From contig CASFJS010000004.1 in the NCBI GenBank assembly GCA_949295085.1, positions 13,372 to 77,371 on the forward strand: a stretch of DNA of 64,000 nt, written 5' to 3'. The stretch's first letter is position 1; every line of letters begins with the position of its first letter. A program made the position numbers and the translations under genes. This DNA comes from an uncultured Pseudomonadota bacterium (lineage in GTDB: Bacteria > Pseudomonadota > Alphaproteobacteria > RF32 > CAG-239). The notes beneath the pieces are model-generated. The model was not told where the DNA came from and did no database searches. It was given only the letters and a program-made list of their open reading frames with translations. This document shows, one piece after another, positions 21,593 through 37,377 of the stretch.

Positions 21593-23317
21593 ATGAAAAA
21601 GGTATTTTTATTTATTCTGGCATTGATGTTGATGGTGAAAACCGTTTGGGCGCAGAGCTTTGACGCCACCGTCAATCGCACAACCGTACCGGAGGGCGAA
21701 ACATTTGTTCTAACGCTGGACCTAAAAGATGTTGATACCTCGTCCACGCCGGATATCGGCGCCTTAAGCAAAGATTTTACGGTGCTGTCTGTATCCAACG
21801 GCTATCGCACCAATATTATCAACGGAGATGTCAGCAAATCGCGCCAGTGGAGTCTGGTTTTGATACCTGACCGAAGCGGCAGTTTGACCATTCCGTCGAT
21901 TGAGCTTGCCGGCTATCAAACGCAACCCATTACCTTAAATGTGATTCCGGCCGGTACGACCGATCAGCTGGTGCAGGGGCAGGCGGCCGATACACCGCGT
22001 TTCAAAATAAGCGGCGATATTGATAATTTTTCACCTTATGTTCAACAGCAGCTTAATTATCGGCTGACGATTTATGATGCCGGCGGTTTGCAGGGGGAGA
22101 CGCCGTTTTTTGTAACCGATAATGACGACTGGATAATCAAAAGTTTGGGTGAGCCGCAGGTCGAGACTAAAATTGTCAACGGTCAAACCTTGCGCGAAAT
22201 TACTTTTAACTATGCTTTATTTGCCCAAAGAAGCGGAGAACAGACTGTTCCGCCGGTGCGTTTTAACGGCTATTATTTGACTAAAGAAACCCGTACGGAT
22301 CCGTTTGCCCGTTTTTTTGATAATGATCCGTTTTTTGCCTCTTTCGGTATGAACGATGTTTTTGCCTCGCGCACGCCGGTTGTTTTAAACACCAAGCCGA
22401 TAAAAGTTAACGTCCGTCCGGCAAAGGTTGATACCGGTTGGTGGTTGCCGGCAGAAGAAGTTAAACTTTCGGCCGAATTTGCCGGTGACAAGCCGCAATT
22501 CAAATCCGGTGAGGCAATCAGCCGCACCATTTATCTGAAAGCGGTTGGTGTTTTGGATAATCAATTGCCGGAAATCAAGTTTGCCGCGGTTAACGGGGTT
22601 AAACAATATCCGGAAAAACCGCAAACCGATATGAAAGTTGAGAACGGCAAAGTTGTTTCTTATGCCCGCATGACCAATGTTTATATTCCGGAACAAGCCG
22701 GTGAAATCATTTTACCCGAAATAAGCGTCGACTGGTTTAACACCGCAACCGGTCAGGCCGAAACGGCAGTTATTCCGGCTTATCATACCGAGGTGATGGC
22801 AGGAATTCAGTCGTCGGCATCTGTTGCCGCAAAGCCGCGTCCGGAGCAGCAGCCGGTTTTGATGCCGGCCGCACCGAGCCGGACGGTCACGACAGTAGAG
22901 CAGGTTGATAACACGCAAATTATTTGGTATTTGCTGATAGCTTTTGTCGGCGGTATAATTCTGACATTGCTTGTATCAAAATTGATTACTTTCGCCGCGA
23001 CGCCGACAACCAATCATAAAAAAGCCGTTTTGGCGGCGGCCGAAACCAAAAATTTGCCCAAATTGCGTGATGAGCTTTTGGTTTGGGCGGCAGCGGAATT
23101 TCCGCGGCACAAAATTTCCAATTTACAAGATGTTGCCGATATTTTCCAAAATTCGGCCTTTAATAAGGAGCTTGACAGGCTGCGGGAGGCTTTGTATGCT
23201 GAAACGGCCAAAGATTGGGATGATAAAACTTTTATCGAAATTTTCAAAAAAATATCAAAACAAACCAGAAAACAACGGAGAAAAACCGATGAGCCGCTTC
23301 CAAAACTTTACAGGTAA
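21593..23317 (+). CDS. batD: BatD-like oxygen-tolerance protein
   Basis: 574 aa. Signal peptide, large periplasmic domain and a C-terminal TM helix. Last gene of the bat operon. Confidence 0.65.
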   Translation: MKKVFLFILALMLMVKTVWAQSFDATVNRTTVPEGETFVLTLDLKDVDTSSTPDIGALSKDFTVLSVSNGYRTNIINGDVSKSRQWSLVLIPDRSGSLTIPSIELAGYQTQPITLNVIPAGTTDQLVQGQAADTPRFKISGDIDNFSPYVQQQLNYRLTIYDAGGLQGETPFFVTDNDDWIIKSLGEPQVETKIVNGQTLREITFNYALFAQRSGEQTVPPVRFNGYYLTKETRTDPFARFFDNDPFFASFGMNDVFASRTPVVLNTKPIKVNVRPAKVDTGWWLPAEEVKLSAEFAGDKPQFKSGEAISRTIYLKAVGVLDNQLPEIKFAAVNGVKQYPEKPQTDMKVENGKVVSYARMTNVYIPEQAGEIILPEISVDWFNTATGQAETAVIPAYHTEVMAGIQSSASVAAKPRPEQQPVLMPAAPSRTVTTVEQVDNTQIIWYLLIAFVGGIILTLLVSKLITFAATPTTNHKKAVLAAAETKNLPKLRDELLVWAAAEFPRHKISNLQDVADIFQNSAFNKELDRLREALYAETAKDWDDKTFIEIFKKISKQTRKQRRKTDEPLPKLYR

Positions 23318-24194
23318 GATATATCTGCGCCCGATAGTCTATCCCGGGGATGATAAAATAACTTATTGCCTGCCGCAGGAAGAAGCTGATAAGGCCTTTG
23401 CCGCCGGTTTGCCGGAAATTGAATTGGAAGGCGTTGCGGCAAAGTCTTCCGCGCCGAAAATAGCCGTCATTCTGACCCGCGACCAACATCCGGATCGTCA
23501 ATTACCTGATTACTCTTTACCTTTGGCAACGGCGGAGGCTGTCACGCTTTCCGGCGGAAAAATATGTCCGGTAGGCTATGACAAGGTTGCCGGACAATTG
23601 GCGGCCATTCATCCGGATGGTGTTTTCCTGCCCGGCGGTGTGTTTGACGTACCGCTTGATTGGGAAGAAAACGAACCGGAACATCCGGTTGATTTGCGGC
23701 GTTTCAATGTGTACAGAGAAGTTATCGATTATGCCAAAGAACACAAATTACCCTTGCTGGCGGTTTGCGGCGGCATGCAGGTTTTGGCATGCTGTTTTGG
23801 CGCCAAGATTGGCCGCATTGAGGGACATCGTACAAATATCAAAGATTTTGCGCACAAAATGGAAATTAAACAAAACAGCTTGCTGCAAAAAATTACCGGA
23901 GCATCCGAGATGGAGGTCAACTCCTGGCACACCTGGGCGGTAAGCAAAGATAACATCGGCAATAACCTGGCTCATACATCTCCGGATGGCATTGTTGAGG
24001 CAATTGAACCGGTCAATCCATGGCATCCGTTTGTTTTGGGTATTCAGTCGCACCCCGAATATTTTGTAAAAAAAGGTTATGCCGCCGCGGATAAAATATT
24101 CAAAAGTTTTATCAAAGCAGCCGAAGAAAAAGCCCTTTCCAAACAAAAGTCAGCGTTTAGCATGTTAACGGAAAAGGGTATAAGTCGTGGGTGA
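23289..24194 (+). CDS. Class I glutamine amidotransferase-like hydrolase (peptidase C26 / gamma-glutamyl-GABA hydrolase family)
   Basis: Catalytic Cys motif LAVCGGMQ and His motif (IQSHPE). Start placed at MSRFQNF (ATG 23289), overlapping the end of batD. Confidence 0.65.
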   Translation: MSRFQNFTGKIYLRPIVYPGDDKITYCLPQEEADKAFAAGLPEIELEGVAAKSSAPKIAVILTRDQHPDRQLPDYSLPLATAEAVTLSGGKICPVGYDKVAGQLAAIHPDGVFLPGGVFDVPLDWEENEPEHPVDLRRFNVYREVIDYAKEHKLPLLAVCGGMQVLACCFGAKIGRIEGHRTNIKDFAHKMEIKQNSLLQKITGASEMEVNSWHTWAVSKDNIGNNLAHTSPDGIVEAIEPVNPWHPFVLGIQSHPEYFVKKGYAAADKIFKSFIKAAEEKALSKQKSAFSMLTEKGISRG

Positions 24195-24804
24195 AGACTT
24201 AATCGAGATAAAAACCGACACACACTTTGTGGTCGATTTAATGTATGCCGGCACCACGCACAATATGACCGGACAGCCGGTGTATCAGGAAATTGGACTG
24301 GGTAATCATGCTTATGTTCACAAAGATTTATGGTTTTGTTTGCAAAAATTGATACCTTATCTGGATAAAACCGGTCGTCGGCTCAAAATTTACGAGGCTT
24401 TTCGTCCGGTGGCAGCACATAAATTGTTGTTTGCGGCCATCCCGCAAGACGGCTTTTTTGTTCCCGAGGCAGAACGTTCGCCGCATTGCCGGGCTGCGGC
24501 GGTTGATGTGGCGTTGCTTGAGGCAGACGGTGTGGAGCTGGTTTATCCGACCAAAGTTGATGCTTATGATGAAAATTTTGCCAAAGAAGTCCAATCCGGG
24601 CATTTGGAAAGTTTTTTCAAATATCTGCAAAAAGCCACGCTTGACTATCAAGATGCCTCAATACCGGAAGCTATTCACAATCGTGACGAGTTATACCGTC
24701 TTATGCAGAGTATCGGTTTGGTTCCGGTGCCCCGGCGTCATGAATGGTGGCATTACGAGCTGCCGGCTGCCCGTACGGACAAATATCCGCTGATTGAATT
24801 TTAA
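24187..24804 (+). CDS. D-Ala-D-Ala dipeptidase (VanX/DdpX, peptidase M15D)
   Basis: VDLMYA..., SPHCRAAAVD and EWWHYE motifs. Likely GTG start. Confidence 0.7.
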   Translation: MGEDLIEIKTDTHFVVDLMYAGTTHNMTGQPVYQEIGLGNHAYVHKDLWFCLQKLIPYLDKTGRRLKIYEAFRPVAAHKLLFAAIPQDGFFVPEAERSPHCRAAAVDVALLEADGVELVYPTKVDAYDENFAKEVQSGHLESFFKYLQKATLDYQDASIPEAIHNRDELYRLMQSIGLVPVPRRHEWWHYELPAARTDKYPLIEF

Positions 24805-26042: not shown

Positions 26043-27341
<1,299 letters not shown>

Positions 27342-27352
27342 GGCTTAAAGCC

Positions 27353-27402
27353 CGTAAAAAAAGGCCCCTTTTTGAACTGTCCAACTTTCCGGGGACAGTT
27401 CA
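27353..27402. repeat. Left boundary repeat of the AT-rich island (hairpin GAACTGTCC-N-GGACAGTTC preceded by CGTAAAAA..GCCCCT)
   Basis: About 50 bp. Its reverse complement recurs at 33320-33370 with the hairpin stem conserved. Confidence 0.7.
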
Positions 27403-27495
27403 TAAGGCCGGGGAGCTTTTAGCGTATGCAATAGGAATCCTCGGATTCTAAAGGCTAAAAGAATCATTTTGCGAAATGTGATTTACGAACTCTCC

Positions 27496-27526
27496 GACCA
27501 CCTTAGTGCTTAGGTGGTCTTTTTTT
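27496..27526 (+). terminator. Rho-independent terminator
   Basis: GACCACCTTAGTGCTTAGGTGGTC hairpin followed by TTTTTTT. Confidence 0.6.
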
Positions 27527-27985
27527 ATGGAGATTTATTATTTATGGGGAAAATATGCGCTTTTTTTCGGACATAGAAATGTCTATGGCAATATTGACCA
27601 AGAATTGGAAAAGCAAGTAGAAAAGCTCATAATTCAGGAAAATATTGATACGTTTTGGATCGGCGGTTATGGTGAATTTGATAAATTAGCTTCTCGAACA
27701 GTTAGAAAAATGCAGGAAAAATATCCTGTAATACGGTTAATATTGATTATTGCTTATGCAGGGCAACTCCACCGCTTCGGAGATGAATTTCCTTTTGATG
27801 GTTTTGATTATCCTCCTGAAGCTGAAAATGCACCACAAAAATTTGCCATCTCGGCCAGAAATCATTATATGGCTGAAAATTGCGATATGGTTATCTCTCA
27901 TATTGTACATGATTATGGCGGGGCCTATGACGCCGTTAGAACTGCTAAAAGTAAAGGTAAAATTATAATAAATTTAGTTAAATAA
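27527..27985 (+). CDS. YpsA-like DUF1273 protein (SLOG superfamily, predicted nucleotide/ADP-ribose binding)
   Basis: Motifs correspond to B. subtilis YpsA (FGHRN ~ TGYKP; WIGGYGEFDKLA ~ ILISGQLGVELWA; EKYPVIRLILIIAY ~ EEYPDLKVAVITPF). AT-rich. Confidence 0.5.
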   Translation: MEIYYLWGKYALFFGHRNVYGNIDQELEKQVEKLIIQENIDTFWIGGYGEFDKLASRTVRKMQEKYPVIRLILIIAYAGQLHRFGDEFPFDGFDYPPEAENAPQKFAISARNHYMAENCDMVISHIVHDYGGAYDAVRTAKSKGKIIINLVK

Positions 27986-28169
27986 ATATAAAATCTCTCC
28001 AAATAAGAAACTTAAAAAATATATACATTGACTTGCTATAAAAAATCGGCTTAGACTTTAATATAAAATAAATCAATATGGAAATTTTGACATTATAGTT
28101 TATTTTAATATTAGCTAATGGAGTTTTGAACGAGAAGCAAGTAAAAACTATTATAATTAGGAGTTGTCG

Positions 28170-29162
28170 ATGATTTATCCAAATAAATTAAAGCCCGGAT
28201 CTCATATTCGAGTTATTGCGCCATCAAGAAGTTTCAAAATTATTTCAGAAGAAACACGCGAAATTGCGAAAAAACGTTTTGCAGATATGGGAATTTCGGT
28301 AAGTTATTCCAAACATTGTGATGAAATTGACGATTTTGTTTCATCATCAATTGCTTCAAGACTTGAAGATTTGCATGAAGCGTTTGCGGATAAAAGCGTT
28401 GACGGTATTTTAACAGCTATTGGCGGGTTTAATACTAATCAGTTAATTGATAAAATTGATTATACTCTTATTAAAAACAATCCTAAAATTTTATGTGGAT
28501 TTTCAGATATTACTTGCCTTTGCCATGCCATAACAGCAAAGACAGATGTTGTAACCTATTCTGGTCCGCATTTTTCAAGTTTTGGAATGCTTTATGGTTT
28601 TGATTATACATTGGACTATTTTAAAAAGTGTCTAATTGAGAGCAAGCCTTATCAGGTTGTCCCGGCCAAAGAGTTTAGCAATGATGAATGGTTTATGGAT
28701 CAAGAGAAACGTAATTTTACACCCAATAGTGGCTTTTGGATCATTAACAAAGGAAAAGGGAGTGAATTTGAGGGAAAATTAGTTGGCGGGCATGTTCGTT
28801 GTCTGAGTTCATTGCAAGGTACAGAATTTTGGCCGTCTTTGGAAAATACTATTTTGTTTTTAGAAGAAGATGAGGAAACAAACGCCGTTTTATTCGATCG
28901 TTTGTTGCAATCGTTAATTCATCAAGCAGATTTTAAACATGTTAAGGCGTTAATTATTGGCCGTTTCAAACCAGAATCAAAAATTGACAGAAATTTGCTT
29001 GAACAAATCATTCATACCAAAGAAGCCTTGAAAGAGTTACCTGTAATTGCCAATTTTGATATTGGACACTCGACTCCGATTATTACCTATCCAATCGGGG
29101 GACGGATTTCTCTTAAAATGCGGGAAGACGAGTTGCCAGCTATTGAAATACTGGAGCATTAA
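28170..29162 (+). CDS. Peptidase S66 LD-carboxypeptidase / microcin C immunity MccF family
   Basis: GGFN...CGFSDIT (nucleophile Ser) with His/Glu downstream. About 331 aa. RBS AGGAG at 28159. AT-rich. Confidence 0.7.
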   Translation: MIYPNKLKPGSHIRVIAPSRSFKIISEETREIAKKRFADMGISVSYSKHCDEIDDFVSSSIASRLEDLHEAFADKSVDGILTAIGGFNTNQLIDKIDYTLIKNNPKILCGFSDITCLCHAITAKTDVVTYSGPHFSSFGMLYGFDYTLDYFKKCLIESKPYQVVPAKEFSNDEWFMDQEKRNFTPNSGFWIINKGKGSEFEGKLVGGHVRCLSSLQGTEFWPSLENTILFLEEDEETNAVLFDRLLQSLIHQADFKHVKALIIGRFKPESKIDRNLLEQIIHTKEALKELPVIANFDIGHSTPIITYPIGGRISLKMREDELPAIEILEH

Positions 29163-29165
29163 AAA

Positions 29166-29196
29166 AATAGCGGGAAGTTTACTTCCCGCTATTTTT
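29166..29196. terminator. Bidirectional terminator between convergent genes
   Basis: Perfect palindrome AATAGCGGGAAGT-TTAC-TTCCCGCTATT flanked by A and T runs. Confidence 0.65.
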
Positions 29197-30307
29197 ATCT
29201 TGATAATTTATTTTGTGTTAATGTAAAGATTATTGAATTGGAAGAGTTCTCTCCTGTTTGCTTTTGCTGGTTTTCTATAACTTCTGTATTTGATTTTTGA
29301 TTTTGAGATGTTGGACATATAAAATCCATAATTTTTTGAGTATACTCTCCTTTATTAGATCCGTACTCTAATAATTCGTATTGATGTAGTGTCTTTCTTA
29401 ACACCTCTTTGGGAAGATTGGTTTTATCGGCACATGCTTTCATTATCTCAAGATATTTTTTCATTAGACGATTGGTGTTGCCCTTATTAGACGGTTCCAA
29501 TCCATCATTATATAAAGCCATGCTCGTTACAATCGTGTCTTCCATTTTTACTCGGATATTAGGATTTTGAATGTATTTATCTAATCCTAATACGGGGTGG
29601 CAATCCATAACATGATTTAATCCATAAATCTGTTTTAGTACCGTAGAGCTTCCTAAGGCAATCTCTATTCCGAGCTGCTTATCCTGATTTTCTAAAATAA
29701 TAACATTTCCAATATCTGAAAACGTATCTTTTCCATAATCACGCAAAGCGAGATTAAAATTGCGTCCCCAAACACCATCAATACCAAGTTTATGACGATA
29801 ATATTTAGGCTGCATAGTGTCTATTTCAAACATTTCAGATTTAAACATACTATGAGCCAAATCCATCAAATCAGTATCTCTGGCACTAATACGAATTTTT
29901 ATGTCATTAGGATCAATATTCCATTGTTCTTGGATAAAGCTGTAAGTCTGTTTTGTAATATCTTCCAGCCGTTCCGGTTTAGTCAGTATTCCAAGACTTG
30001 GAAAATACGATCCCCAATTCGGATAAAAATCATCATTTTCATAATTTTTTAAATTTCGAGTACGAATACAGGGCTGCGACATAACATAACCGCCAGCAGG
30101 AATACTGTCATTCAAAAAATAAGGCTTTAAAACACTGATGTGCGAACCAATAAAACGAACAGATGGATCTATTCCGGACGATATTTTAACAGGGTCATGT
30201 TTTATACAAGAACGGTCCTGAAAATAGGTTAGAAAACCGTCAATCATATTTTGCATATGAAAATGACTTTCTTTCCTGTTGAAATCTGGCATATCTTTTA
30301 TTTTCAT
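29195..30307 (-). CDS. Standalone alanyl-tRNA synthetase-like class II aaRS catalytic-domain paralog
   Basis: 370 aa. Alignable to the AlaRS N-terminal catalytic core: FLTYFQD...SSGIDPSVRF ~ FLDFFHSKGH...SSSLVPHNDPTLLF; SQPCIRTRN ~ SQRCVRAGG; GIEIALGSSTVLKQIYGLNHVMD ~ [23 protein letters not shown]. No tRNA-binding or editing domains. Confidence 0.45.
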   Translation of the reverse strand: MKIKDMPDFNRKESHFHMQNMIDGFLTYFQDRSCIKHDPVKISSGIDPSVRFIGSHISVLKPYFLNDSIPAGGYVMSQPCIRTRNLKNYENDDFYPNWGSYFPSLGILTKPERLEDITKQTYSFIQEQWNIDPNDIKIRISARDTDLMDLAHSMFKSEMFEIDTMQPKYYRHKLGIDGVWGRNFNLALRDYGKDTFSDIGNVIILENQDKQLGIEIALGSSTVLKQIYGLNHVMDCHPVLGLDKYIQNPNIRVKMEDTIVTSMALYNDGLEPSNKGNTNRLMKKYLEIMKACADKTNLPKEVLRKTLHQYELLEYGSNKGEYTQKIMDFICPTSQNQKSNTEVIENQQKQTGENSSNSIIFTLTQNKLSR

Positions 30308-30317
30308 TTTTTTTATC

Positions 30318-31130
30318 CTATTTTTTACCGTAACCCGACTTAAACTGGGCCATTATTAAGACGTTATTATGATCATGCTGTTTGAACAGTTTAGCCATTT
30401 GGACAATTCTTGTTCCGTACTTTTGACGTCCTTCTGCTGTCATGCCAATTTTCCAATTCCATTCCGGTGTTTTGCACTGTTCACTTAAAGCTTCACGCAG
30501 GAATTGAGATGGGATTCTTGGTGTTACCAGCCTTTCCGGGAAGAATAGCTGCGTATTATCTGAACTTTTTAGATAAAAATAAGATTCAACCGAAGTACGA
30601 GCAGAATCTTCATATATGACGTTATCTTTGATAAAATCTACTAAATTACGATTCCCGGAATATTGAGTTTCAAATTCTGAAATATTCCGTGATGATCCGT
30701 CATAATCAAGCAACTGAACATTCTTTTGTTTGAAAAAGTTATCCATATCATCTGTATCACATTTAACATTTGGAATAAAATGTAAATGTGCATGAAATAT
30801 TGATTTAATATGTGGCGGCGTATTTAATTCTTCCGCCTTACTTGTTCCATGCTCAAACATAATAAAATTTTCTGATTTTGTTGTATTCTCCAAACGATCC
30901 AATATATAACCTACTTCTCGTCCTTGAGCGTCATTAAATTCTGCAAATGTGTTAATATGTTCTTTAGGGAGAATAATAATATGATTGGGAGCAATCGGAA
31001 ATTTATCTGGAATAACCTTAAAGCTCTTAGTTTCAAATAAAGTTACATTACTCTGTAATTCTGGATATTGCTCTTTGATATTTTGAAATTCATCTTTCAA
31101 ACCATCACATAAAACGCAATTTTTTATCAT
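30318..31130 (-). CDS. HIT-family hydrolase (histidine triad; possible phosphoramidase)
   Basis: HAHLHFIP histidine-triad motif and N-terminal CVLCDG. The HIT domain is followed by a C-terminal extension of about 150 aa. Confidence 0.7.
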   Translation of the reverse strand: MIKNCVLCDGLKDEFQNIKEQYPELQSNVTLFETKSFKVIPDKFPIAPNHIIILPKEHINTFAEFNDAQGREVGYILDRLENTTKSENFIMFEHGTSKAEELNTPPHIKSIFHAHLHFIPNVKCDTDDMDNFFKQKNVQLLDYDGSSRNISEFETQYSGNRNLVDFIKDNVIYEDSARTSVESYFYLKSSDNTQLFFPERLVTPRIPSQFLREALSEQCKTPEWNWKIGMTAEGRQKYGTRIVQMAKLFKQHDHNNVLIMAQFKSGYGKK

Positions 31131-31732
31131 AAACTCGCCCCTCCAATGGCGTTTTTTGAGAATTTCATATAATAACCATTTTGTTTTTTACGAACATGAT
31201 TAGCATGTTTTATAATTTGGAAAGCTGCCTCTGTTGCTGACAACTTAGTTACATCTAAGCGTAAAAGATTTGGATGTTCTATCTCTGGCAACCCCAAGTT
31301 CGCAATTTGCTGAACTACATCCGGATTTATTGTTTTTAAAAACTTTTTCCGAAAAGGGTTGGCGATTCTTTTCTTGTTCTCTTTTACATCACACAGTAAC
31401 ATTACAGGAACGAATAAAGCCTGCCGTGTATTGGCAAGCTTTTCAACTGGTTTATAATATGAATTTTCTTCCCCTAGGGAAATTACATTTGTAAATATAA
31501 AAGATTCACCTTTAGGACAAATTTCTCCCATGGCTTCAAGAACAATATTACGCACCTTTAGTCGATATTCTTCATGTTTGGGATGGGAATAATTTTTTGA
31601 TACTGAAAAAATCGCATTTGTATACGAATGATTGTCAACTAAAGTGAATGATTGTTTTTTCTGGATTTCCTTTGCAATGGTTTGCTTTCCCACGCCTGGA
31701 CCTCCGATTAAATAAATGATTGTATTCCTCAT
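31127..31732 (-). CDS. P-loop nucleotide/nucleoside kinase-like protein
   Basis: Walker A motif LIGGPGVGKQTIAKEI, about 200 aa, adenylate-kinase / shikimate-kinase-like size. ATGA overlap with the HIT gene. Confidence 0.55.
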   Translation of the reverse strand: MRNTIIYLIGGPGVGKQTIAKEIQKKQSFTLVDNHSYTNAIFSVSKNYSHPKHEEYRLKVRNIVLEAMGEICPKGESFIFTNVISLGEENSYYKPVEKLANTRQALFVPVMLLCDVKENKKRIANPFRKKFLKTINPDVVQQIANLGLPEIEHPNLLRLDVTKLSATEAAFQIIKHANHVRKKQNGYYMKFSKNAIGGASL

Positions 31733-31888: not shown

Positions 31889-31991
31889 CATTATCGTGGT
31901 CAATATTTTTTTGACAAAATGTTGACTTTTCCCGATAAGAATGTTAGTGTTAATTGTTTTCCATTAAAAATTACCAGTTCAAGGATAAAAA

Positions 31992-33248
31992 ATGCAAGCA
32001 ACAAACTTATTCAGTCGCACAGTTCCATGTAAAAAAGAGCTAATTAAAGAAGATACCTCTGCTTATTTGGGAACGGAAACATATTCTATTATGAAAAATA
32101 GCTTATTACGCATATCCCCCAATGGAACTCTTGCAATTTCAGGAAAAACAATAAATAGTGTTTTATTCTTAGACAATGAAATGGTTGAGCTTCTTCAACA
32201 ACCGACTTTCACGTTGAATGGAATGCCGCAGTCCGTCGTTCAGAATTTATTAAGCCATGAACTAATAGAACAAACCGACAGGCCTAATTCTTTTAAAAAA
32301 GTCCATTGTCTAAATAACGCCTTGCCATATTATGGCAGAATTGAAATTACCGACGCTTGCCAATGTGATTGTGATATTTGTTATAAAGCGGGAATTCCTA
32401 CTCCTCCACCATCTCTGGATATTCTGAAAAAACGAATCAAGCATTTAAGAAAGCTGGGAATTACCAGACTTGAAATTTTAGGCGGCGAACCATTGCTCAG
32501 AAAAGATTTGCCTGAACTCTGTGATTTTGTAACTAAAGAAAACTTTTTATACACGATTGTAACTAACGGTGAGTATTTATCCTCGTTGGATAAAAGAGCC
32601 ATTAACTCATTAAAAAGCGCAAGTGATGTAATTATAAGTATTGACTCATACGGAGAATTACACGACAAAAGCAGAAAACGTCCGGGACTTTTTGCTAAAG
32701 ATATAGAGGGGATTCAGGTATTAAAAGAAAATGGTATCAACTGCTCTTTGTTATGTACTGTTAATCAGGATAATGAACCTGGCATTGACCAATTAGTCGA
32801 ATACCTAAAACCCTTTGAAGTTAATTTATTTATCCGGCCGACAATAATTGCCGGAGCTGCTGCTAACAACGAATTGCAAAATGTTGATATGCGCCGCATT
32901 TACGAAAAACACAAAAATAATCCGTACGTTTTTCATAATACCGTTCATTTAGCTGACAAAATTCCAGAATCAAAATATTATGGTTGCGATATTCGACAAC
33001 TGATTAATATTGATGTAAATGGCCGTCTACTAATTTGTCATATGGATCGTAAGCATAAAAAGGGGCCTATTGAGAAATATACTCCGGAAATGTTATTACA
33101 AGAATTGGATTTTACCCTGCGCTCACGCTTAAAAAAACAGGAAACCTGTAAGGATTGTGATGTTAACAGTTCATCAGAAGGAATTAAATGTGGGGGATTT
33201 TGCCAATTTTCAAATACTTTTATCAAAAATAAAATAAAAGAACGCTAA
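31992..33248 (+). CDS. Radical SAM / SPASM-domain protein with N-terminal RRE-like extension (peptide-modifying maturase-like)
   Basis: CQCDCDIC fits CxxxCxxC. Glycine-rich SAM motif (LEILGGEPLL). C-terminal Cys cluster CKDCDV...CGGFC (SPASM/twitch-like). About 120 aa of non-rSAM N-terminal domain. Confidence 0.7.
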   Translation: MQATNLFSRTVPCKKELIKEDTSAYLGTETYSIMKNSLLRISPNGTLAISGKTINSVLFLDNEMVELLQQPTFTLNGMPQSVVQNLLSHELIEQTDRPNSFKKVHCLNNALPYYGRIEITDACQCDCDICYKAGIPTPPPSLDILKKRIKHLRKLGITRLEILGGEPLLRKDLPELCDFVTKENFLYTIVTNGEYLSSLDKRAINSLKSASDVIISIDSYGELHDKSRKRPGLFAKDIEGIQVLKENGINCSLLCTVNQDNEPGIDQLVEYLKPFEVNLFIRPTIIAGAAANNELQNVDMRRIYEKHKNNPYVFHNTVHLADKIPESKYYGCDIRQLINIDVNGRLLICHMDRKHKKGPIEKYTPEMLLQELDFTLRSRLKKQETCKDCDVNSSSEGIKCGGFCQFSNTFIKNKIKER

Positions 33249-33319
33249 TTATGAATGGAAAATTTTATGATGAGCTATTTATAGGTCATTTAATATCTAT
33301 CAAAAAAAGCCTCTTAATT

Positions 33320-33370
33320 TTGAACTGTCCCCGGAAAGTTGGACAGTTCACTTCGGAGGGGCTTTTTACG
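33320..33370. repeat. Right boundary repeat of the AT-rich island (inverted copy of 27353-27402)
   Basis: TTGAACTGTCCCCGGAAAGTTGGACAGTTCA...GGGGCTTTTTACG is the reverse complement of the left copy. It doubles as a bidirectional terminator. Confidence 0.7.
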
Positions 33371-33381
33371 ATGGATAACGG

Positions 33382-33696
33382 TTATTTTTCAAGCCCGTCG
33401 ATCAGTGGATTGTTTTTAACTTTTTTTATCAAAACCTGATAATCGCGCAAAACATCATCGCCGGCCTTGTTGTGCTCCAGCACCACAATCCGGTTGCAAT
33501 TATTGAGGGCTTCAACAATCTTGGCGGGAATATAATCAAGCAGCAAAACATCATGGTCGTTTCGGAACAACGTTGCGTGTTTCCCGCCGTCATAAAGCAA
33601 CAACGGCCTTTCCGGCTTCGCTCTTTCATAAGGCAGCACAAACACCGGCACACCCTCATCGCTCAAAACAATCTGATAATCCTTTGCGTGTTTCAT
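33382..33696 (-). CDS. Hypothetical protein
   Basis: 104-aa ORF with host-like GC, coupled to the next ORF. Confidence 0.3.
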   Translation of the reverse strand: MKHAKDYQIVLSDEGVPVFVLPYERAKPERPLLLYDGGKHATLFRNDHDVLLLDYIPAKIVEALNNCNRIVVLEHNKAGDDVLRDYQVLIKKVKNNPLIDGLEK

Positions 33697-33968
33697 TAAC
33701 TGAGTCTTTCTTTGGCCTTTTTCTGCAAAGAGATAGCTTTGTCAATTGTCCAATCGGCGGCTTTAACGCTTTTGTCATACAAAAATTCACCAATGCCGAA
33801 ATTCATCCCCGGCGCCATCTGGTCAGCCATATTTTTGGCGCCGCCGACAAATAATTTGGCCGTTTCGGCAGTAAATTTTAAGCCGTATTTTGCAGCCTTG
33901 GAGGCGATAATTGTCGCGCTCAGGCCGGCTTTTCCGGCGGTTTTTAATGTTTTTTCCATGGTCGGCAT
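33696..33968 (-). CDS. Hypothetical protein
   Basis: 90-aa ORF, Ala/Lys-rich. Confidence 0.25.
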   Translation of the reverse strand: MPTMEKTLKTAGKAGLSATIIASKAAKYGLKFTAETAKLFVGGAKNMADQMAPGMNFGIGEFLYDKSVKAADWTIDKAISLQKKAKERLS

Positions 33969-34290: not shown

Positions 34291-37200
34291 ATGAAACATT
34301 ATGCGGATGTTAAGGCAAAGCCTGACTTTGTCGAATTGGAAAAAGAGGTTTTGAAGTTCTGGGATGAGGACAAGACTTTTGAAAAATCGGTGCACAATCG
34401 CGACGGCGCGGCCGAGTTTGTGTTTTATGACGGACCGCCGTTTGCCAACGGCACGCCGCACTACGGCCACATCATGGTGTCTTATGTCAAGGACGTCGTC
34501 GCCCGTTTTCAGACTATGAACGGCAAAAAGGTTGAGCGCCGTTTGGGCTGGGACTGCCACGGCCTGCCGGCCGAAATGTCCGCCGAAAAACAGCTCGGTG
34601 TTTCCGGACGCAAGCAGATCGAGGCCTACGGGGTTGAAAAGTTCAACAATTTCTGCCGTTCCGATGTCTTAAAATATTCCGGCATCTGGGTCGATATGTT
34701 CAAGCGTATCGGCCGCTGGGTAGATTTCAACCACGACTATAAGACCATGGACCTGCCGTTTATGGAAAGCGTCATCAGCAACTTCAAACAGCTTTATGAC
34801 AAGGGCTTGGTCTATGAGGACTACCGCGTTTTGCCGTACTCTTGGGCCGCCGAAACTCCGCTGTCAAATTTTGAGGTCAATCAGGGCTATCAGGACAAAA
34901 CCGACAACGCCATTACCGTGATGTTCAAGCTTGAAAACGGCATGAAAATTCTGGTTTGGACCACTACGCCGTGGACCCTGCCGTCCAATCTGATGTTGGC
35001 GGTGGGCGATGATATCGACTATGTCGTTATGGAAGAAGACGGCCAGAAGTATATCTTGGCGCGCGCGCTGCTCGGTCGCTATAAAAAGCAGCTTGAGCAC
35101 GCCGTTGAGGCGGGCTCCTTAAAAGGGCGTGATCTGGTCGGTATGAGCTACGAGCCGATGTTCCCGTACTTCAAACACTTAAAAGACAAGGGCTGTTTCA
35201 AAGTCTTGTCCGGCGAGTTTGTTTCAACCGAGGACGGTACCGGCGTGGTTCATATTGCCCCCGGCTTTGGTCAGGACGACTTTGACGCCTGCCGCGCGTA
35301 TGACGAGCATTTTCCGGTTGTCTGTCCGGTAGATGAGGCCGGCAAATTTACCGCCGAAGTGTCTGATTACGAGGGCAAACAGGTTTTTGAAACCAACGAG
35401 CCGATTATGCAGTGGCTCAAAGAAAACGGCCTTTTGGTCAAAAAAGAACAATACACCCACTCTTATCCTTTCTGCTGGCGTACCGACACGCCGCTGATTT
35501 ACAAAGCAATGTCGTCGTGGTTTGTCCGCGTAACCGACTTCCGCGACGATATGGTCAAAAACAACCGGCAGATTAACTGGGTGCCGGAGCATATCAAAGA
35601 CGGCCGTTTTGGCAAATGGCTTGAGGGCGCGCGTGACTGGTCAATTTCGCGCAACCGTTTTTGGGGCACGCCGATTCCGGTCTGGAAGTCAGATAATCCG
35701 GCCTATCCGCGGGTTGATGTTTTCGGCTCCATCGCCGAGATAAAGGCCAAAACCGGATTTGATGTCGTCGATTTGCACAAACCTTATATTGACGAAGTTG
35801 TTTACCCCAATCCGGACGATCCTTCCGGCAAGACGATGATGCGTCGCGTCGGCGATGTGTTCGACTGCTGGTTTGAATCCGGCTCCATGCCTTATGCTCA
35901 GGTGCACTATCCGTTTGAGAACAAAGAGTGGTTTGAGAGCCATTTTCCGGCTGATTTTATTGTCGAGGCCATGGACCAGACCCGCGGTTGGTTTTATACC
36001 CTGACGGTATTGTCAACCGCGCTGCACAATCGTCCGGCGTTCAAAAACTGCATTTGCACCGGTCTGTTGATGGCTGAAGGCGGACAAAAGCTTTCCAAAC
36101 GCCTTAAGAATTATCCTGACCCGAACGAGGTTTTGGACACCATCGGCTCGGATGTTTTGCGTTGGTTTTTGGTATCTTCGCCGGTATTAAAAGGCGGCAA
36201 TCTGGCGGTTGACAAAGAGGGCAAAGAGATTGCCAAAGCCGCCCGCGAGGCTTTGATACCGTTATGGAACGCGTTTTACTTCTTTACGCTCTATGCCAAT
36301 GCCGAAAGCTACAGGGCCAAAGAGGTTTACGCCTCAACCGAGGCGATGGACAATTATATTCTGTCCAAATTGCAAAAAACGGCCACGATAGTCAAAAACG
36401 GCTTGGAAACCTATAATGTCGCTGTCGCTTGTGATGAGATTGCCGCATTTATTGAGGTCTTAAACAACTGGTATATCCGCCGTTGCCGCGATCGTTTTTG
36501 GGAGGGCGAGCCTCTGGCATTTGATGTCTTGTACACCGTTTTGCTCAATTTGAGCAAGATTGCCGCGCCGCTGATGCCCTTTGTCGCCGAATATGTTTAC
36601 AAAACCCTAAGCGGCGGCGAATCCGTTCATCTGGCGGACTATCCGGATCTGTCGGCAATAAAATTTGATGCCGCGCTGGTTGAGGATATGGACTTTTTGC
36701 AGGATTTGTGCTCGGCGGCCAAGTTCATCCGCGAAGAAAAGAACCTTCGCAACCGCCTGCCGCTCAAGTCGCTGACCGTTGTCGGCCGTGATCTGCCGGC
36801 GGCTTATGGCGAAATTGTCAAAGATGAGCTAAACGTCAAAGAGGTTTTGTTTGACGCCAATTTGAGCGCCTATGCCGACAAAAAGATTTATCTTTATACG
36901 CCGCTTTTGGGCAAAGCTCTGGGCAAAGAAATGGGCGCGGTAATGGCTGCCTACAAGCAGGGGCATTGGAGCCTCAATGCCGACGGAACTTTGGCGATTG
37001 CCGGCCATAATCTGACCAAAGATTTGTTCGAAGTTCGGCTGGAGATGAAAGAGGGCGTTGCCGGCCGTGCCTTTGCCGATAACAAGGCCTTGGTCACGTT
37101 AAACACGACCGTAACGCCGGAACTCAAACGCGAGGGTATGGCGCGCGACTTCATTCGTCTGGTGCAAACGCTGCGCAAGGATAAAGACTTTAATATTTCC

Positions 37201-37377
37201 GACCGTATAGAGCTGAGCTATGCCACTGACAATACCGAGTTGGCGCGGGCGCTGGAAGAAAATCGTGCCTATATTGCCGAGCAGGTTTTGGCAGTAAAGG
37301 TCGATAACTCCTGCGCCGGAGGTACCAAAGCCGATATTGAGGGCGCCGCCGTTTGCTTTGACGCTAAGGTCGCCTGA
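34291..37377 (+). CDS. ileS: Isoleucine--tRNA ligase, type 2 (eukaryote-like)
   Basis: PPFANGTPHYGHI HIGH region is characteristic of type-2 IleRS. KMSKS motif (KLSKRL). 1028 aa. No C-terminal Zn-finger of type 1. Confidence 0.85.
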   Translation: MKHYADVKAKPDFVELEKEVLKFWDEDKTFEKSVHNRDGAAEFVFYDGPPFANGTPHYGHIMVSYVKDVVARFQTMNGKKVERRLGWDCHGLPAEMSAEKQLGVSGRKQIEAYGVEKFNNFCRSDVLKYSGIWVDMFKRIGRWVDFNHDYKTMDLPFMESVISNFKQLYDKGLVYEDYRVLPYSWAAETPLSNFEVNQGYQDKTDNAITVMFKLENGMKILVWTTTPWTLPSNLMLAVGDDIDYVVMEEDGQKYILARALLGRYKKQLEHAVEAGSLKGRDLVGMSYEPMFPYFKHLKDKGCFKVLSGEFVSTEDGTGVVHIAPGFGQDDFDACRAYDEHFPVVCPVDEAGKFTAEVSDYEGKQVFETNEPIMQWLKENGLLVKKEQYTHSYPFCWRTDTPLIYKAMSSWFVRVTDFRDDMVKNNRQINWVPEHIKDGRFGKWLEGARDWSISRNRFWGTPIPVWKSDNPAYPRVDVFGSIAEIKAKTGFDVVDLHKPYIDEVVYPNPDDPSGKTMMRRVGDVFDCWFESGSMPYAQVHYPFENKEWFESHFPADFIVEAMDQTRGWFYTLTVLSTALHNRPAFKNCICTGLLMAEGGQKLSKRLKNYPDPNEVLDTIGSDVLRWFLVSSPVLKGGNLAVDKEGKEIAKAAREALIPLWNAFYFFTLYANAESYRAKEVYASTEAMDNYILSKLQKTATIVKNGLETYNVAVACDEIAAFIEVLNNWYIRRCRDRFWEGEPLAFDVLYTVLLNLSKIAAPLMPFVAEYVYKTLSGGESVHLADYPDLSAIKFDAALVEDMDFLQDLCSAAKFIREEKNLRNRLPLKSLTVVGRDLPAAYGEIVKDELNVKEVLFDANLSAYADKKIYLYTPLLGKALGKEMGAVMAAYKQGHWSLNADGTLAIAGHNLTKDLFEVRLEMKEGVAGRAFADNKALVTLNTTVTPELKREGMARDFIRLVQTLRKDKDFNISDRIELSYATDNTELARALEENRAYIAEQVLAVKVDNSCAGGTKADIEGAAVCFDAKVA

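Follow-up and report, generated by a model that had tools for sequence, protein, structure and literature searches.

A mobile low-G+C island carries a truncated alanyl-tRNA synthetase-like protein beside an MccF-type peptidase and nucleotide-handling enzymes

The stretch of DNA analyzed here, 64,000 nucleotides long and referred to below as the window, comes from contig CASFJS010000004.1 (positions 13,372 to 77,371 of the forward strand; assembly GCA_949295085.1) of an uncultured alphaproteobacterium (Pseudomonadota; RF32; CAG-239). Its minus strand carries, at positions 29195-30307, a gene for a truncated protein that resembles alanyl-tRNA synthetase (AlaRS) and that we call AlaL, a name coined in this analysis. 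An original prediction, made by reading the DNA without database searches, had marked this open reading frame (ORF) of 370 aa as an orphan AlaRS-like catalytic domain, and the ORF stands with its exact coordinates, an ATG start and conserved homologues. AlaL lies in a 5.9-kb island, with 33% G+C in the AlaL stretch against about 47% for the genome, and closes a minus-strand operon in which a kinase gene and a HIT gene, both already recognized as co-operonic in the original prediction, precede it; the kinase and HIT genes overlap by 4 bp and a 10-bp gap separates HIT from AlaL. A radical S-adenosylmethionine (SAM) gene diverges from this operon and a gene encoding a serine peptidase of family S66 converges with AlaL. 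Neither of these two genes, nor the island structure, nor the link to glycyl-tRNA synthetase (GlyRS) seen in relatives, appeared in the original prediction, whose observation is confirmed and whose interpretation is partly supported by the results presented below.

AlaL was shown to possess the AlaRS-type class II catalytic fold, consisting of the aminoacylation core followed by the helices with which the tRNA-recognition domain opens. Compared on its own, the AlaL sequence matched Pfam PF01411 with an E-value of 1e-4 and 21.3 bits, under the 30.3-bit cut-off and over residues 22-84 only; it scored 18.2 bits against TIGR00344, whose cut-off is 457 bits, and a phmmer search of the PDB returned no significant match. 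Since single-sequence searches of Pfam, NCBIfam and the PDB gave only sub-threshold matches to AlaRS, the comparison required a family profile and a structure model. The profile built from 41 family sequences (alignment A1) found AlaRS catalytic fragments as its sole matches in the PDB (E 6.5e-7), and the likeness to the AlaRS N-terminal core that had been noticed by eye is real, if weak for a single sequence: identity between AlaL and canonical AlaRS catalytic fragments amounts to 13-15%. Residue equivalences were taken from an hhalign alignment of the family profile to Escherichia coli AlaRS, the reference sequence being verified against PDB 3HXU and its numbering checked by R69, W170, N212, V214, D235 and G237. 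The four motif pairings drawn by eye were recovered in this alignment.

The protein begins with the aminoacylation core, continues with the first helical subdomain of the tRNA-recognition domain and finishes with a tail from about residue 334; it is predicted to be structured up to about residue 333 and disordered over residues 334-370. The helices at 249-330, some 80 structured residues, align to the AlaRS segment 'ADHIR...DGV.PSN..RGYVLRR' with which the tRNA-recognition domain starts, and P272, R280 and Y285 are conserved in them. In the window protein the specificity Asn of 'PSN' is retained as N274, yet just 59 of the 344 family members in which residues were counted have it. Ending at residue 370, AlaL is without Mid2 subdomain, editing domain or C-Ala domain, and the complete tRNA-recognition domain, with E. 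coli AlaRS N303 and D400, is not kept. The earlier statement that the protein stops after the aminoacylation domain, devoid of tRNA-binding and editing domains, is therefore correct for editing and C-Ala but overlooks the helical segment. AlaL cannot be the AlaRS of the cell itself.

Nor is AlaL an orphan: judged by sequence comparison, it is a member of a large, distinct and unnamed family of truncated AlaRS paralogues. One homologue is 99% identical and represents 93 member sequences. A word-indexed search yielded 183 proteins matching AlaL at E<=1e-3, all of them unnamed or annotated as 'hypothetical', and an exhaustive profile search against 1.84 billion representatives of 50%-identity clusters returned 772 clusters at E<=1e-3, of which 293 at E<=1e-30. 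Nearly all have lengths of 320-400 aa. The AlaL family thus stands well apart from true AlaRS. Among data comprising one genome per species, most matches occur in Patescibacteria, and others in metagenome-assembled genomes (MAGs) of Alpha- and Gammaproteobacteria, in Bdellovibrionales, on a Calothrix plasmid, in Firmicutes, Dysgonomonas, Arthrobacter and Humibacillus, and in a Methanosarcinales MAG. Searches of plasmid and phage collections gave zero homologues.

One truncated AlaRS-like enzyme has been described previously. AcmF, from the ascamycin biosynthesis pathway of Streptomyces sp. JCM9888/80H647 (PMC12945691, PMC4257720), moves alanine, and also glycine or serine, from charged tRNA onto the sulfamate nitrogen of dealanylascamycin (PMC12945691). 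It is devoid of ATP-binding residues and carries the changes N219Q and D232E, the new Glu232 being essential; the acceptor occupies the old adenylate site, its adenine stacked against W100 and F104, and the Asp and Asn that read G3:U70 are absent (PMC12945691). Its likeness to AlaL, discussed hereafter, is drawn from published descriptions of AcmF. Streptomyces also has members of the AlaL family: those met in a search seeded with an actinobacterial AlaL are all 'hypothetical' proteins, in which the residue pattern of AcmF is absent.

The residues with which AlaRS holds the adenylate are retained in AlaL (R82, W98/F102, D198 and N201). The motif-2 arginine, R69 in E. coli, corresponds to R82 (Arg in 331 of the 344 members); F90, which stacks on adenine, to F102 (Phe in 336); E209 to D198 (Asp in 320); and N212 to N201 (Asn in 332). 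Four positions ahead of F102, W98 is conserved as Trp or another aromatic residue. V214 has become I203 (Ile in 315/344) and G237 has become A217 (Ala in 277/344). D235, which binds the amino group of alanine, is replaced by E215, with Glu in 330 members and Asp in three. The motif-3 arginine R242, which grips ATP in AlaRS, is missing: T222 takes its place, and the six commonest residues at this position (T, V, M, A, N and S) account for 325 of the 344 members, Arg being outside those six. The hairpin connecting the equivalents of N212 and D235 counts 14 residues in AlaL, 23 in AlaRS and 13 in AcmF.

The original prediction had favored an adenylate-forming amino-acid ligase and had tied the class II assignment to the arginines of motifs 2 and 3. 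Only the first of these is present, and because the second is absent and Asp235 has turned into Glu almost throughout, such a ligase seems less likely, and an AcmF-like transferase using aminoacyl-tRNA more likely. The ligase reading is weakened but deserves to be spelled out: ATP would activate alanine or glycine, which AlaL would transfer directly to the amine of a small molecule or nucleotide with no involvement of tRNA, the HIT protein and the kinase acting on the nucleotide moiety. It gains from the retention of the motif-2 Arg, the adenine-stacking Phe, the acidic D198 and Asn201, and the invariant R182 or the frequent K225 could replace the motif-3 Arg. AlaL also lacks Mid2, and E. coli AlaRS cut down to about 368 residues forms the adenylate and does not charge tRNA. 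Hint-type HIT enzymes, moreover, accept aminoacyl-adenylates made by aminoacyl-tRNA synthetases (aaRS). Yet K225 occurs in only 195 of the 344 members, Arg is not among the reported motif-3 residues, and the replacement of Asp235 by Glu is that of the ATP-independent AcmF, where this Glu is essential. We therefore regard direct ATP-dependent ligation as unlikely, although it is the alternative that we take most seriously.

The same counts bear on the idea that AlaL is a non-catalytic pseudo-enzyme which, in the manner of HisZ, would sense an amino acid, an adenylate or uncharged tRNA and regulate its partner enzymes. Alignment A1 shows no variation at about 40 positions near the active site, among them that of the catalytic Glu of AcmF, and these positions are 93-98% conserved in the 344 members; the domains found fused to AlaL belong to enzymes rather than to DNA-binding proteins. 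Of all the alternatives, this one appears the least probable and is hard to credit.

The island is bounded by two 70-nt arms of an imperfect inverted repeat. The G+C content starts to fall at the left arm (27336-27405) and to rise again at the right arm (33318-33387), which contains the same hairpin with an inverted loop. The core of these repeats is a 28-nt hairpin, GAACTGTCC-N10-GGACAGTTC, which occurs just twice in the 64-kb window, once in each arm. The same cassette is found between different, unrelated flanks in three other loci (L002, L003 and L048), and the AlaL island is mobile. It is 96% identical to the human-gut MAG contig UMGS1924 and about 82-84% identical to contigs of Alphaproteobacteria MAGs. 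No transposase or integrase is encoded inside the repeats. The repeat-bounded block also contains a YpsA/SLOG-like ORF of 159 aa on the plus strand (27506-27985; PF06908, E 3e-5, below cut-off), which is outside the cassette common to L002 or L048; SLOG domains bind nucleotides, and this ORF may represent extra cargo.

Within the island, an inverted repeat with 33-nt arms (29146-29213) covers the 32 bp that separate the S66 and AlaL stop codons and is probably a bidirectional terminator. Between the divergent kinase operon and radical SAM gene lies a palindromic element containing TTGAC, GTCAACATTTTGTCAAAAAAATATTGAC (31899-31926), a candidate operator or twin promoter that is conserved in the window, L001, L002 and L048 and that occurs once in the window against zero expected. 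A conserved small ORF that might encode a precursor peptide was sought in the intergenic regions of these same four loci and none was found. An Rfam scan of the window and eight relatives detected no T-box, riboswitch or other RNA and, without a T-box, the amino acid involved is not readable from a specifier codon. PADLOC gave no defense-system match for AlaL, HIT and S66, nor for the AsnRS-like, HD and DCD partners described below.

Among all partners of the AlaL family, the S66 peptidase (28164-29162, plus strand; Pfam S66 N domain at E 1e-32 and C domain at E 1e-28) is conserved best; its translation may actually begin with the ATG at 28170. It matches Bacillus anthracis BA_5613, an 'MccF-like' protein (4E5S), end to end (E 1.8e-101) and Listeria Lmo1638 at E 1.7e-96; MccF proper aligns over the full length (E 1e-36) and LdcA only in parts. 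The catalytic triad is present, with Ser in GFSDIT, Glu in FLEED and His in GHSTP, PDB 4INJ being a Ser-to-Ala form of the same motif. The NCBIfam model for muramoyltetrapeptide carboxypeptidase scores far under its cut-off (E 1.5e-29).

Directly upstream of AlaL, the minus-strand gene at 30318-31130 encodes a two-domain HIT protein of 270 aa (Pfam HIT and DcpS_C). It displays a CxxC motif, the histidine triad HAHLHFIP and a conserved C-terminal IPSQFLR...WNWK domain, and its matches in the PDB are Hint and Fhit. Its AF2 model has a pLDDT of 89 and, over the whole length, its fold is matched best by two-domain HITs of the CWF19 type and Apa2. This HIT family comprises only 45 proteins, three of them fused to a kinase (P0312-P0314), and its members adjoin AlaL in L001-4, L006 and L048-52. 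HIT relatives of about 28% identity reside in another conserved operon of Firmicutes (L053 and L054), made of DUF2797, the HIT-like protein, two unknown proteins and a small HIT, with no AlaL.

The first gene of the operon (31127-31732, minus strand) encodes a 201-aa protein resembling P-loop nucleotide or nucleoside kinases. Matches to AAA_18, AAA_17 and AAA_33 all remain under the curated cut-offs, and weak matches to nucleoside monophosphate (NMP), APS and dephospho-CoA kinases are restricted to the P-loop; the protein is a generic P-loop NMP-kinase-like one. The divergent gene (31992-33248, plus strand) encodes a radical SAM enzyme of 418 aa (PF04055, E 4e-14) with a CxxxCxxC core, a Cys-rich C-terminal SPASM/twitch-like region and a 110-aa N-terminal extension; L001-3 and L048 have it together with the rest of the island. 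It belongs to the SPASM/twitch group, its nearest families being NirJ/AhbC, PTO1314, SkfB and the BlsE type, all far below cut-offs. Viperin was considered and rejected, the match to the pVip models of PADLOC (56 bits) lying at the level of the generic core and the NCBIfam score being 48 bits against a 180-bit cut-off. Sequence searches of the PDB brought no specific functional assignment for the kinase or the radical SAM enzyme.

Neighborhoods were surveyed in 52 AlaL loci, in which ORFs were called and searched with the neighbors found, counting those within 5 kb of AlaL (<=5 kb). An S66 peptidase is present in 43 of the 52, mostly directly downstream of AlaL; the loci without it are mostly truncated contigs, and L032 and L036 carry an alpha/beta-hydrolase in its place. 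The usual third gene of these clusters, found in 30 loci, encodes AsxL, a catalytic core resembling asparaginyl-tRNA synthetase (AsnRS). SAM methyltransferases occur in 24 loci, full-length GlyRS of either type in 13 loci from four phyla, HD phosphohydrolases in 12, two-domain HIT proteins in 11 and dCTP-deaminase-like pairs in five, and radical SAM genes recur as well. The typical operon of Patescibacteria consists of an HD phosphohydrolase, a SAM methyltransferase, AlaL, S66 and an AsnRS-like core of 375 aa, in which motif 3 (GFGLGIER) is intact and an anticodon domain is missing. In L032 and L036-39, two dCTP-deaminase-like genes accompany a radical SAM gene, a NUDIX gene lies near HIT-AlaL in L006, and the Arthrobacter locus L046 includes an MFS exporter and an ATP-grasp ligase. 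The Dysgonomonas sp. 521 cassette (L040, 7404-12912) groups HD, AlaL, a PurD-like phosphoribosylamine-glycine ligase, an unknown 496-aa protein, a ThrRS-like core of 303 aa and a small HIT, and thereby holds a truncated aaRS core of another kind and one more enzyme that handles glycine.

Fusions occur as well. AlaL is joined to S66 (L024, 5236-7320), to HD (L035, 7992-11448, and P0228), to a GNAT (P0157), to a methyltransferase (P0169) and to a response-regulator receiver (P0189), and a methyltransferase is fused to S66 in L035 (7992-11448). Across the 52 loci, neighbors and fusion partners of AlaL are overwhelmingly nucleotide-handling enzymes, which makes the chemistry on a nucleotide or phosphate moiety proposed in the original prediction a reasonable reading. 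The amino-acid:carrier ligase that it had also envisaged is not indicated, no carrier-protein (PP-binding) gene being present in the island or among the recurrent neighbors.

The association with GlyRS takes different forms. In Firmicutes, a full-length GlyRS is embedded in a tight AsxL-AlaL-GlyRS-S66 operon, with another GlyRS gene at a distance of a few kb. For the most part, the embedded copies are nearer to each other than to the second copy of their own locus, with the exception of L034, whose two copies are 80% identical; this pattern suggests that the embedded enzymes form a separate orthologous group. Alphaproteobacterial cassettes L005 and L050 contain GlyRS of the alpha2 type, the two copies being 73% identical, and actinobacterial cassettes L046 and L047 contain a fused alpha-beta GlyRS directly after AlaL. 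Alphaproteobacteria ordinarily use the alpha2beta2 enzyme and Actinobacteria the alpha2 type. The GlyRS of the cassette is consequently of a type foreign to its host in both groups and, as two architectures were recruited independently, it can be argued that glycine, Gly-tRNA or GlyRS is central to AlaL cassettes. These loci also bear on the ATP-dependent ligase discussed above: the PurD-like enzyme next to AlaL in L040 is itself an ATP-dependent glycine ligase and speaks in its favor, whereas a recurrent full-length GlyRS inside the operon is hard to explain if no tRNA takes part.

Taken together, the almost constant proximity of AlaL to MccF-type S66 peptidases and nucleotide enzymes suggests an undescribed route to, or defense against, antibiotic-like aminoacyl-adenylate mimics. 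A search of the literature for neighborhoods uniting aaRS-like proteins with S66 and for GlyRS self-resistance clusters found nothing. Three enzyme classes are known to disarm aminoacyl-adenylate mimics, namely S66 (MccF), HIT (MccH) and GNAT (MccE), and all three are linked or fused to AlaL. MccE is the GNAT that detoxifies such mimics. MccH is a HIT enzyme that detoxifies microcin C (McC), and HIT proteins of the MccH clade from Parcubacteria confer McC resistance (PMC7157772).

This gathering of detoxifying classes, as well as those Parcubacteria proteins, invites the view that the island is a resistance cassette and not a producer. It would act on exogenous aminoacyl-nucleotide antibiotics similar to microcin C or ascamycin: S66 would cut the C-N bond, HIT would cut the P-N bond, the kinase would modify the drug, and AlaL would serve as a decoy or as a detoxifying transferase for the adenylate mimic. 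The island of the window has neither exporter nor precursor peptide, and the cassette is mobile and resident in gut bacteria, which would fit this view. A stoichiometric decoy, however, would not require strictly conserved catalytic-site residues, and an aaRS core unable to charge tRNA takes part in no known resistance mechanism. The radical SAM enzyme, PurD-like and ATP-grasp ligases, methyltransferase, dCTP-deaminase-like proteins, AsnRS-like core with its intact active site and MFS exporter found in the various loci look biosynthetic. On balance, pure resistance strikes us as improbable.

Cell-wall metabolism offers another frame, S66 being the family of LdcA. The cassette would then remodel or recycle cell-wall peptides, with S66 as LD-carboxypeptidase on the (UDP-MurNAc-)tetrapeptide, AlaL, as a non-Fem analogue, attaching to the stem peptide glycine or alanine taken from aminoacyl-tRNA, and the AsnRS-like protein adding Asx. 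Gly, Ala and Asx are classic cross-bridge residues and bridges use Gly-tRNA; UDP-linked precursors would, in addition, account for the nucleotide enzymes. Against this stand the alignment of the S66 protein, end to end with MccF-type enzymes and only partial with LdcA, the lack of mur, fem or other peptidoglycan genes recurring in AlaL neighborhoods, and partners such as HIT, kinase, radical SAM, dCTP-deaminase-like and NUDIX proteins that have no obvious murein role. We consider a murein function very improbable.

The reading that we prefer, at a probability of roughly 0.45, is that AlaL makes a small aminoacyl-nucleotide, an aminoacyl-adenylate mimic, from aminoacyl-tRNA in the way of AcmF, with S66 as the corresponding hydrolase. 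AlaL would make no adenylate itself; its old adenylate pocket would hold an acceptor nucleoside or nucleotide bearing an amine, and the enzyme would move a small aminoacyl group onto this amine. Candidate acceptors, which the kinase, HIT and radical SAM enzymes would make in this island, resemble adenosine 5'-phosphoramidate or sulfamate, the phosphoramidate being attractive as an isostere of the compound that AcmF acylates. The transferred group would be glycine or alanine. With one more carbon at each of Ile203 and Ala217, the side-chain pocket would be narrower than in AlaRS and would favor glycine; an additional GlyRS recurs among relatives. A non-hydrolysable aminoacyl-adenylate mimic would result and, as such, a tRNA-synthetase inhibitor. 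S66 would cut its aminoacyl-N bond, as MccF does on processed microcin C, either to protect the cell itself or in the course of turnover. Alternatively, the HIT protein could hydrolyse a P-N bond as MccH does.

Several observations weigh against this scheme. The equivalent of N212 is Gln (Q219) in AcmF and is kept as Asn201 in AlaL (332/344), and AlaL could still use ATP through the motif-2 Arg, the further basic residue R84 and the invariant R182. The missing Mid2 subdomain makes tRNA binding less certain. A synthase fused to the hydrolase of its own product, as in L024, is odd for a toxin-and-immunity pair. The window island possesses no exporter and no extra aaRS such as GlyRS, and the preparation of the acceptor by the kinase, HIT and radical SAM proteins assigns them roles that are guesses. 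S66 enzymes include LD-carboxypeptidases of murein recycling, and a literature search for substrates of BA_5613 or Lmo1638, the nearest solved S66 homologues, found nothing.

A broader proposition may be formulated, tentatively, for the family as a whole. AlaL cassettes would constitute a tRNA-dependent route to phosphoramidate or sulfamate aminoacyl-adenylate mimics that dispenses with MccB and with a precursor peptide. The likely product would be a natural GlyRS inhibitor, accompanied by built-in S66, HIT or GNAT detoxification and by a resistant GlyRS copy, and the cassettes would have spread horizontally among Patescibacteria, gut Alphaproteobacteria, Firmicutes, Actinobacteria, cyanobacteria and an archaeon. 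No natural GlyRS inhibitor, and no gene cluster for one, was found in the literature searched. In Patescibacteria, which are ultra-small episymbionts, they would amount to a chemical weapon that is conserved or to a switch for self-poisoning. This proposition is possible but somewhat doubtful.

The flanks of the island hold a few other genes. Just beyond its right edge, two small minus-strand ORFs of 104 and 90 aa (33382-33968) have no Pfam or NCBIfam match. At 0.9 kb from the same edge and with normal G+C, the plus-strand gene at 34291-37377 encodes an isoleucyl-tRNA synthetase of 1028 aa that, judged from its length, may be of the eukaryote-like type 2; its closeness to a putative aaRS-inhibitor cassette may be coincidence. 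Farther to the left (23067-24804, plus strand), genes of housekeeping G+C have translations that look, by eye, like a class I glutamine-amidotransferase-like protein and a D-Ala-D-Ala dipeptidase of VanX/DdpX type; they have no relation to the island, yet are relevant to cell-wall peptide metabolism.

If the preferred reading is true, at least 770 clusters of 'hypothetical' sequences would represent a second and far larger case of an AlaRS core turned aminoacyl-transferase, extending the single Streptomyces example to many phyla. Gut bacteria and Patescibacteria would then be a source of new natural tRNA-synthetase inhibitors, possibly directed against GlyRS. The small genomes of Patescibacteria have few known secondary-metabolite pathways. 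The widespread 'MccF-like' S66 peptidases of the BA_5613 and Lmo1638 type, whose structures are solved, would gain a candidate natural substrate. At 5.9 kb, the island is small enough for direct heterologous expression.

Compared with canonical AlaRS (E. coli AlaRS 1-441; PDB 3HXU, 9JC7 and 1RIQ), AlaL has insertions deleted, no motif-3 Arg and Glu for Asp235. Stand-alone class II cores employed in tasks other than tRNA charging are known from AsnA and archaeal asparagine synthetase A, from EpmA/GenX, from HisZ and from SerRS-like amino acid:carrier-protein ligases, and AlaL shares this general character. However, apart from the regulatory HisZ, these enzymes keep the motif-3 Arg and make an adenylate, and none of them derives from AlaRS; AlaL is linked here to no gene for a carrier protein or EF-P-type target.

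Microcin C systems and AlaL cassettes have in common an MccF-type S66 with a Ser-His-Glu triad, an adjacent HIT, a GNAT, fused to AlaL in one member, a non-hydrolysable aminoacyl-adenylate mimic as product, predicted in the case of AlaL, and horizontal mobility. They differ in that no island ORF contains an MccB (ThiF/E1-like) domain according to Pfam and NCBIfam, and in that neither a conserved MccA-like peptide gene (a short ORF ending in Asn) nor an MccC exporter is present in the island. The amino acid is Asp in microcin C and would be Gly or Ala for AlaL, and synthesis proceeds by adenylation of a ribosomal peptide in the former and through an aaRS-like transferase, as proposed here, in the latter.

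The ascamycin system is the other term of comparison. AcmF and AlaL are both truncated AlaRS-like proteins without editing or C-Ala domain, both have Glu at the Asp235 position (E232 and E215, respectively), and they share the W-x3-F aromatic pair, the shortened hairpin and the absence of the Asp and Asn that read G3:U70. As for ATP-binding residues, AcmF has lost them, and AlaL lacks the motif-3 Arg but has the motif-2 Arg, R84 and R182. The acm cluster encodes an extra resistant AlaRS, AcmD, and an alanine-removing hydrolase, AcmE (PMC12945691), together with P-loop (APS) kinase and radical SAM proteins (PMC4257720). Of the AlaL clusters, 13 of 52 contain an additional full-length aaRS, and S66 would be the de-aminoacylating hydrolase; the window island possesses the S66 gene and not the aaRS. 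The window island also combines a P-loop kinase with a radical SAM enzyme; unlike acm, it has no sulfate-activation or sulfatase genes and contains a HIT protein instead. The partner aaRS is AlaRS in acm and GlyRS in AlaL clusters, and the hydrolase is a secreted alpha/beta-hydrolase in the former and an MccF-type S66 in the latter. Finally, AcmF belongs to Streptomyces, whereas AlaL is distributed among gut Alphaproteobacteria, Patescibacteria and other hosts.

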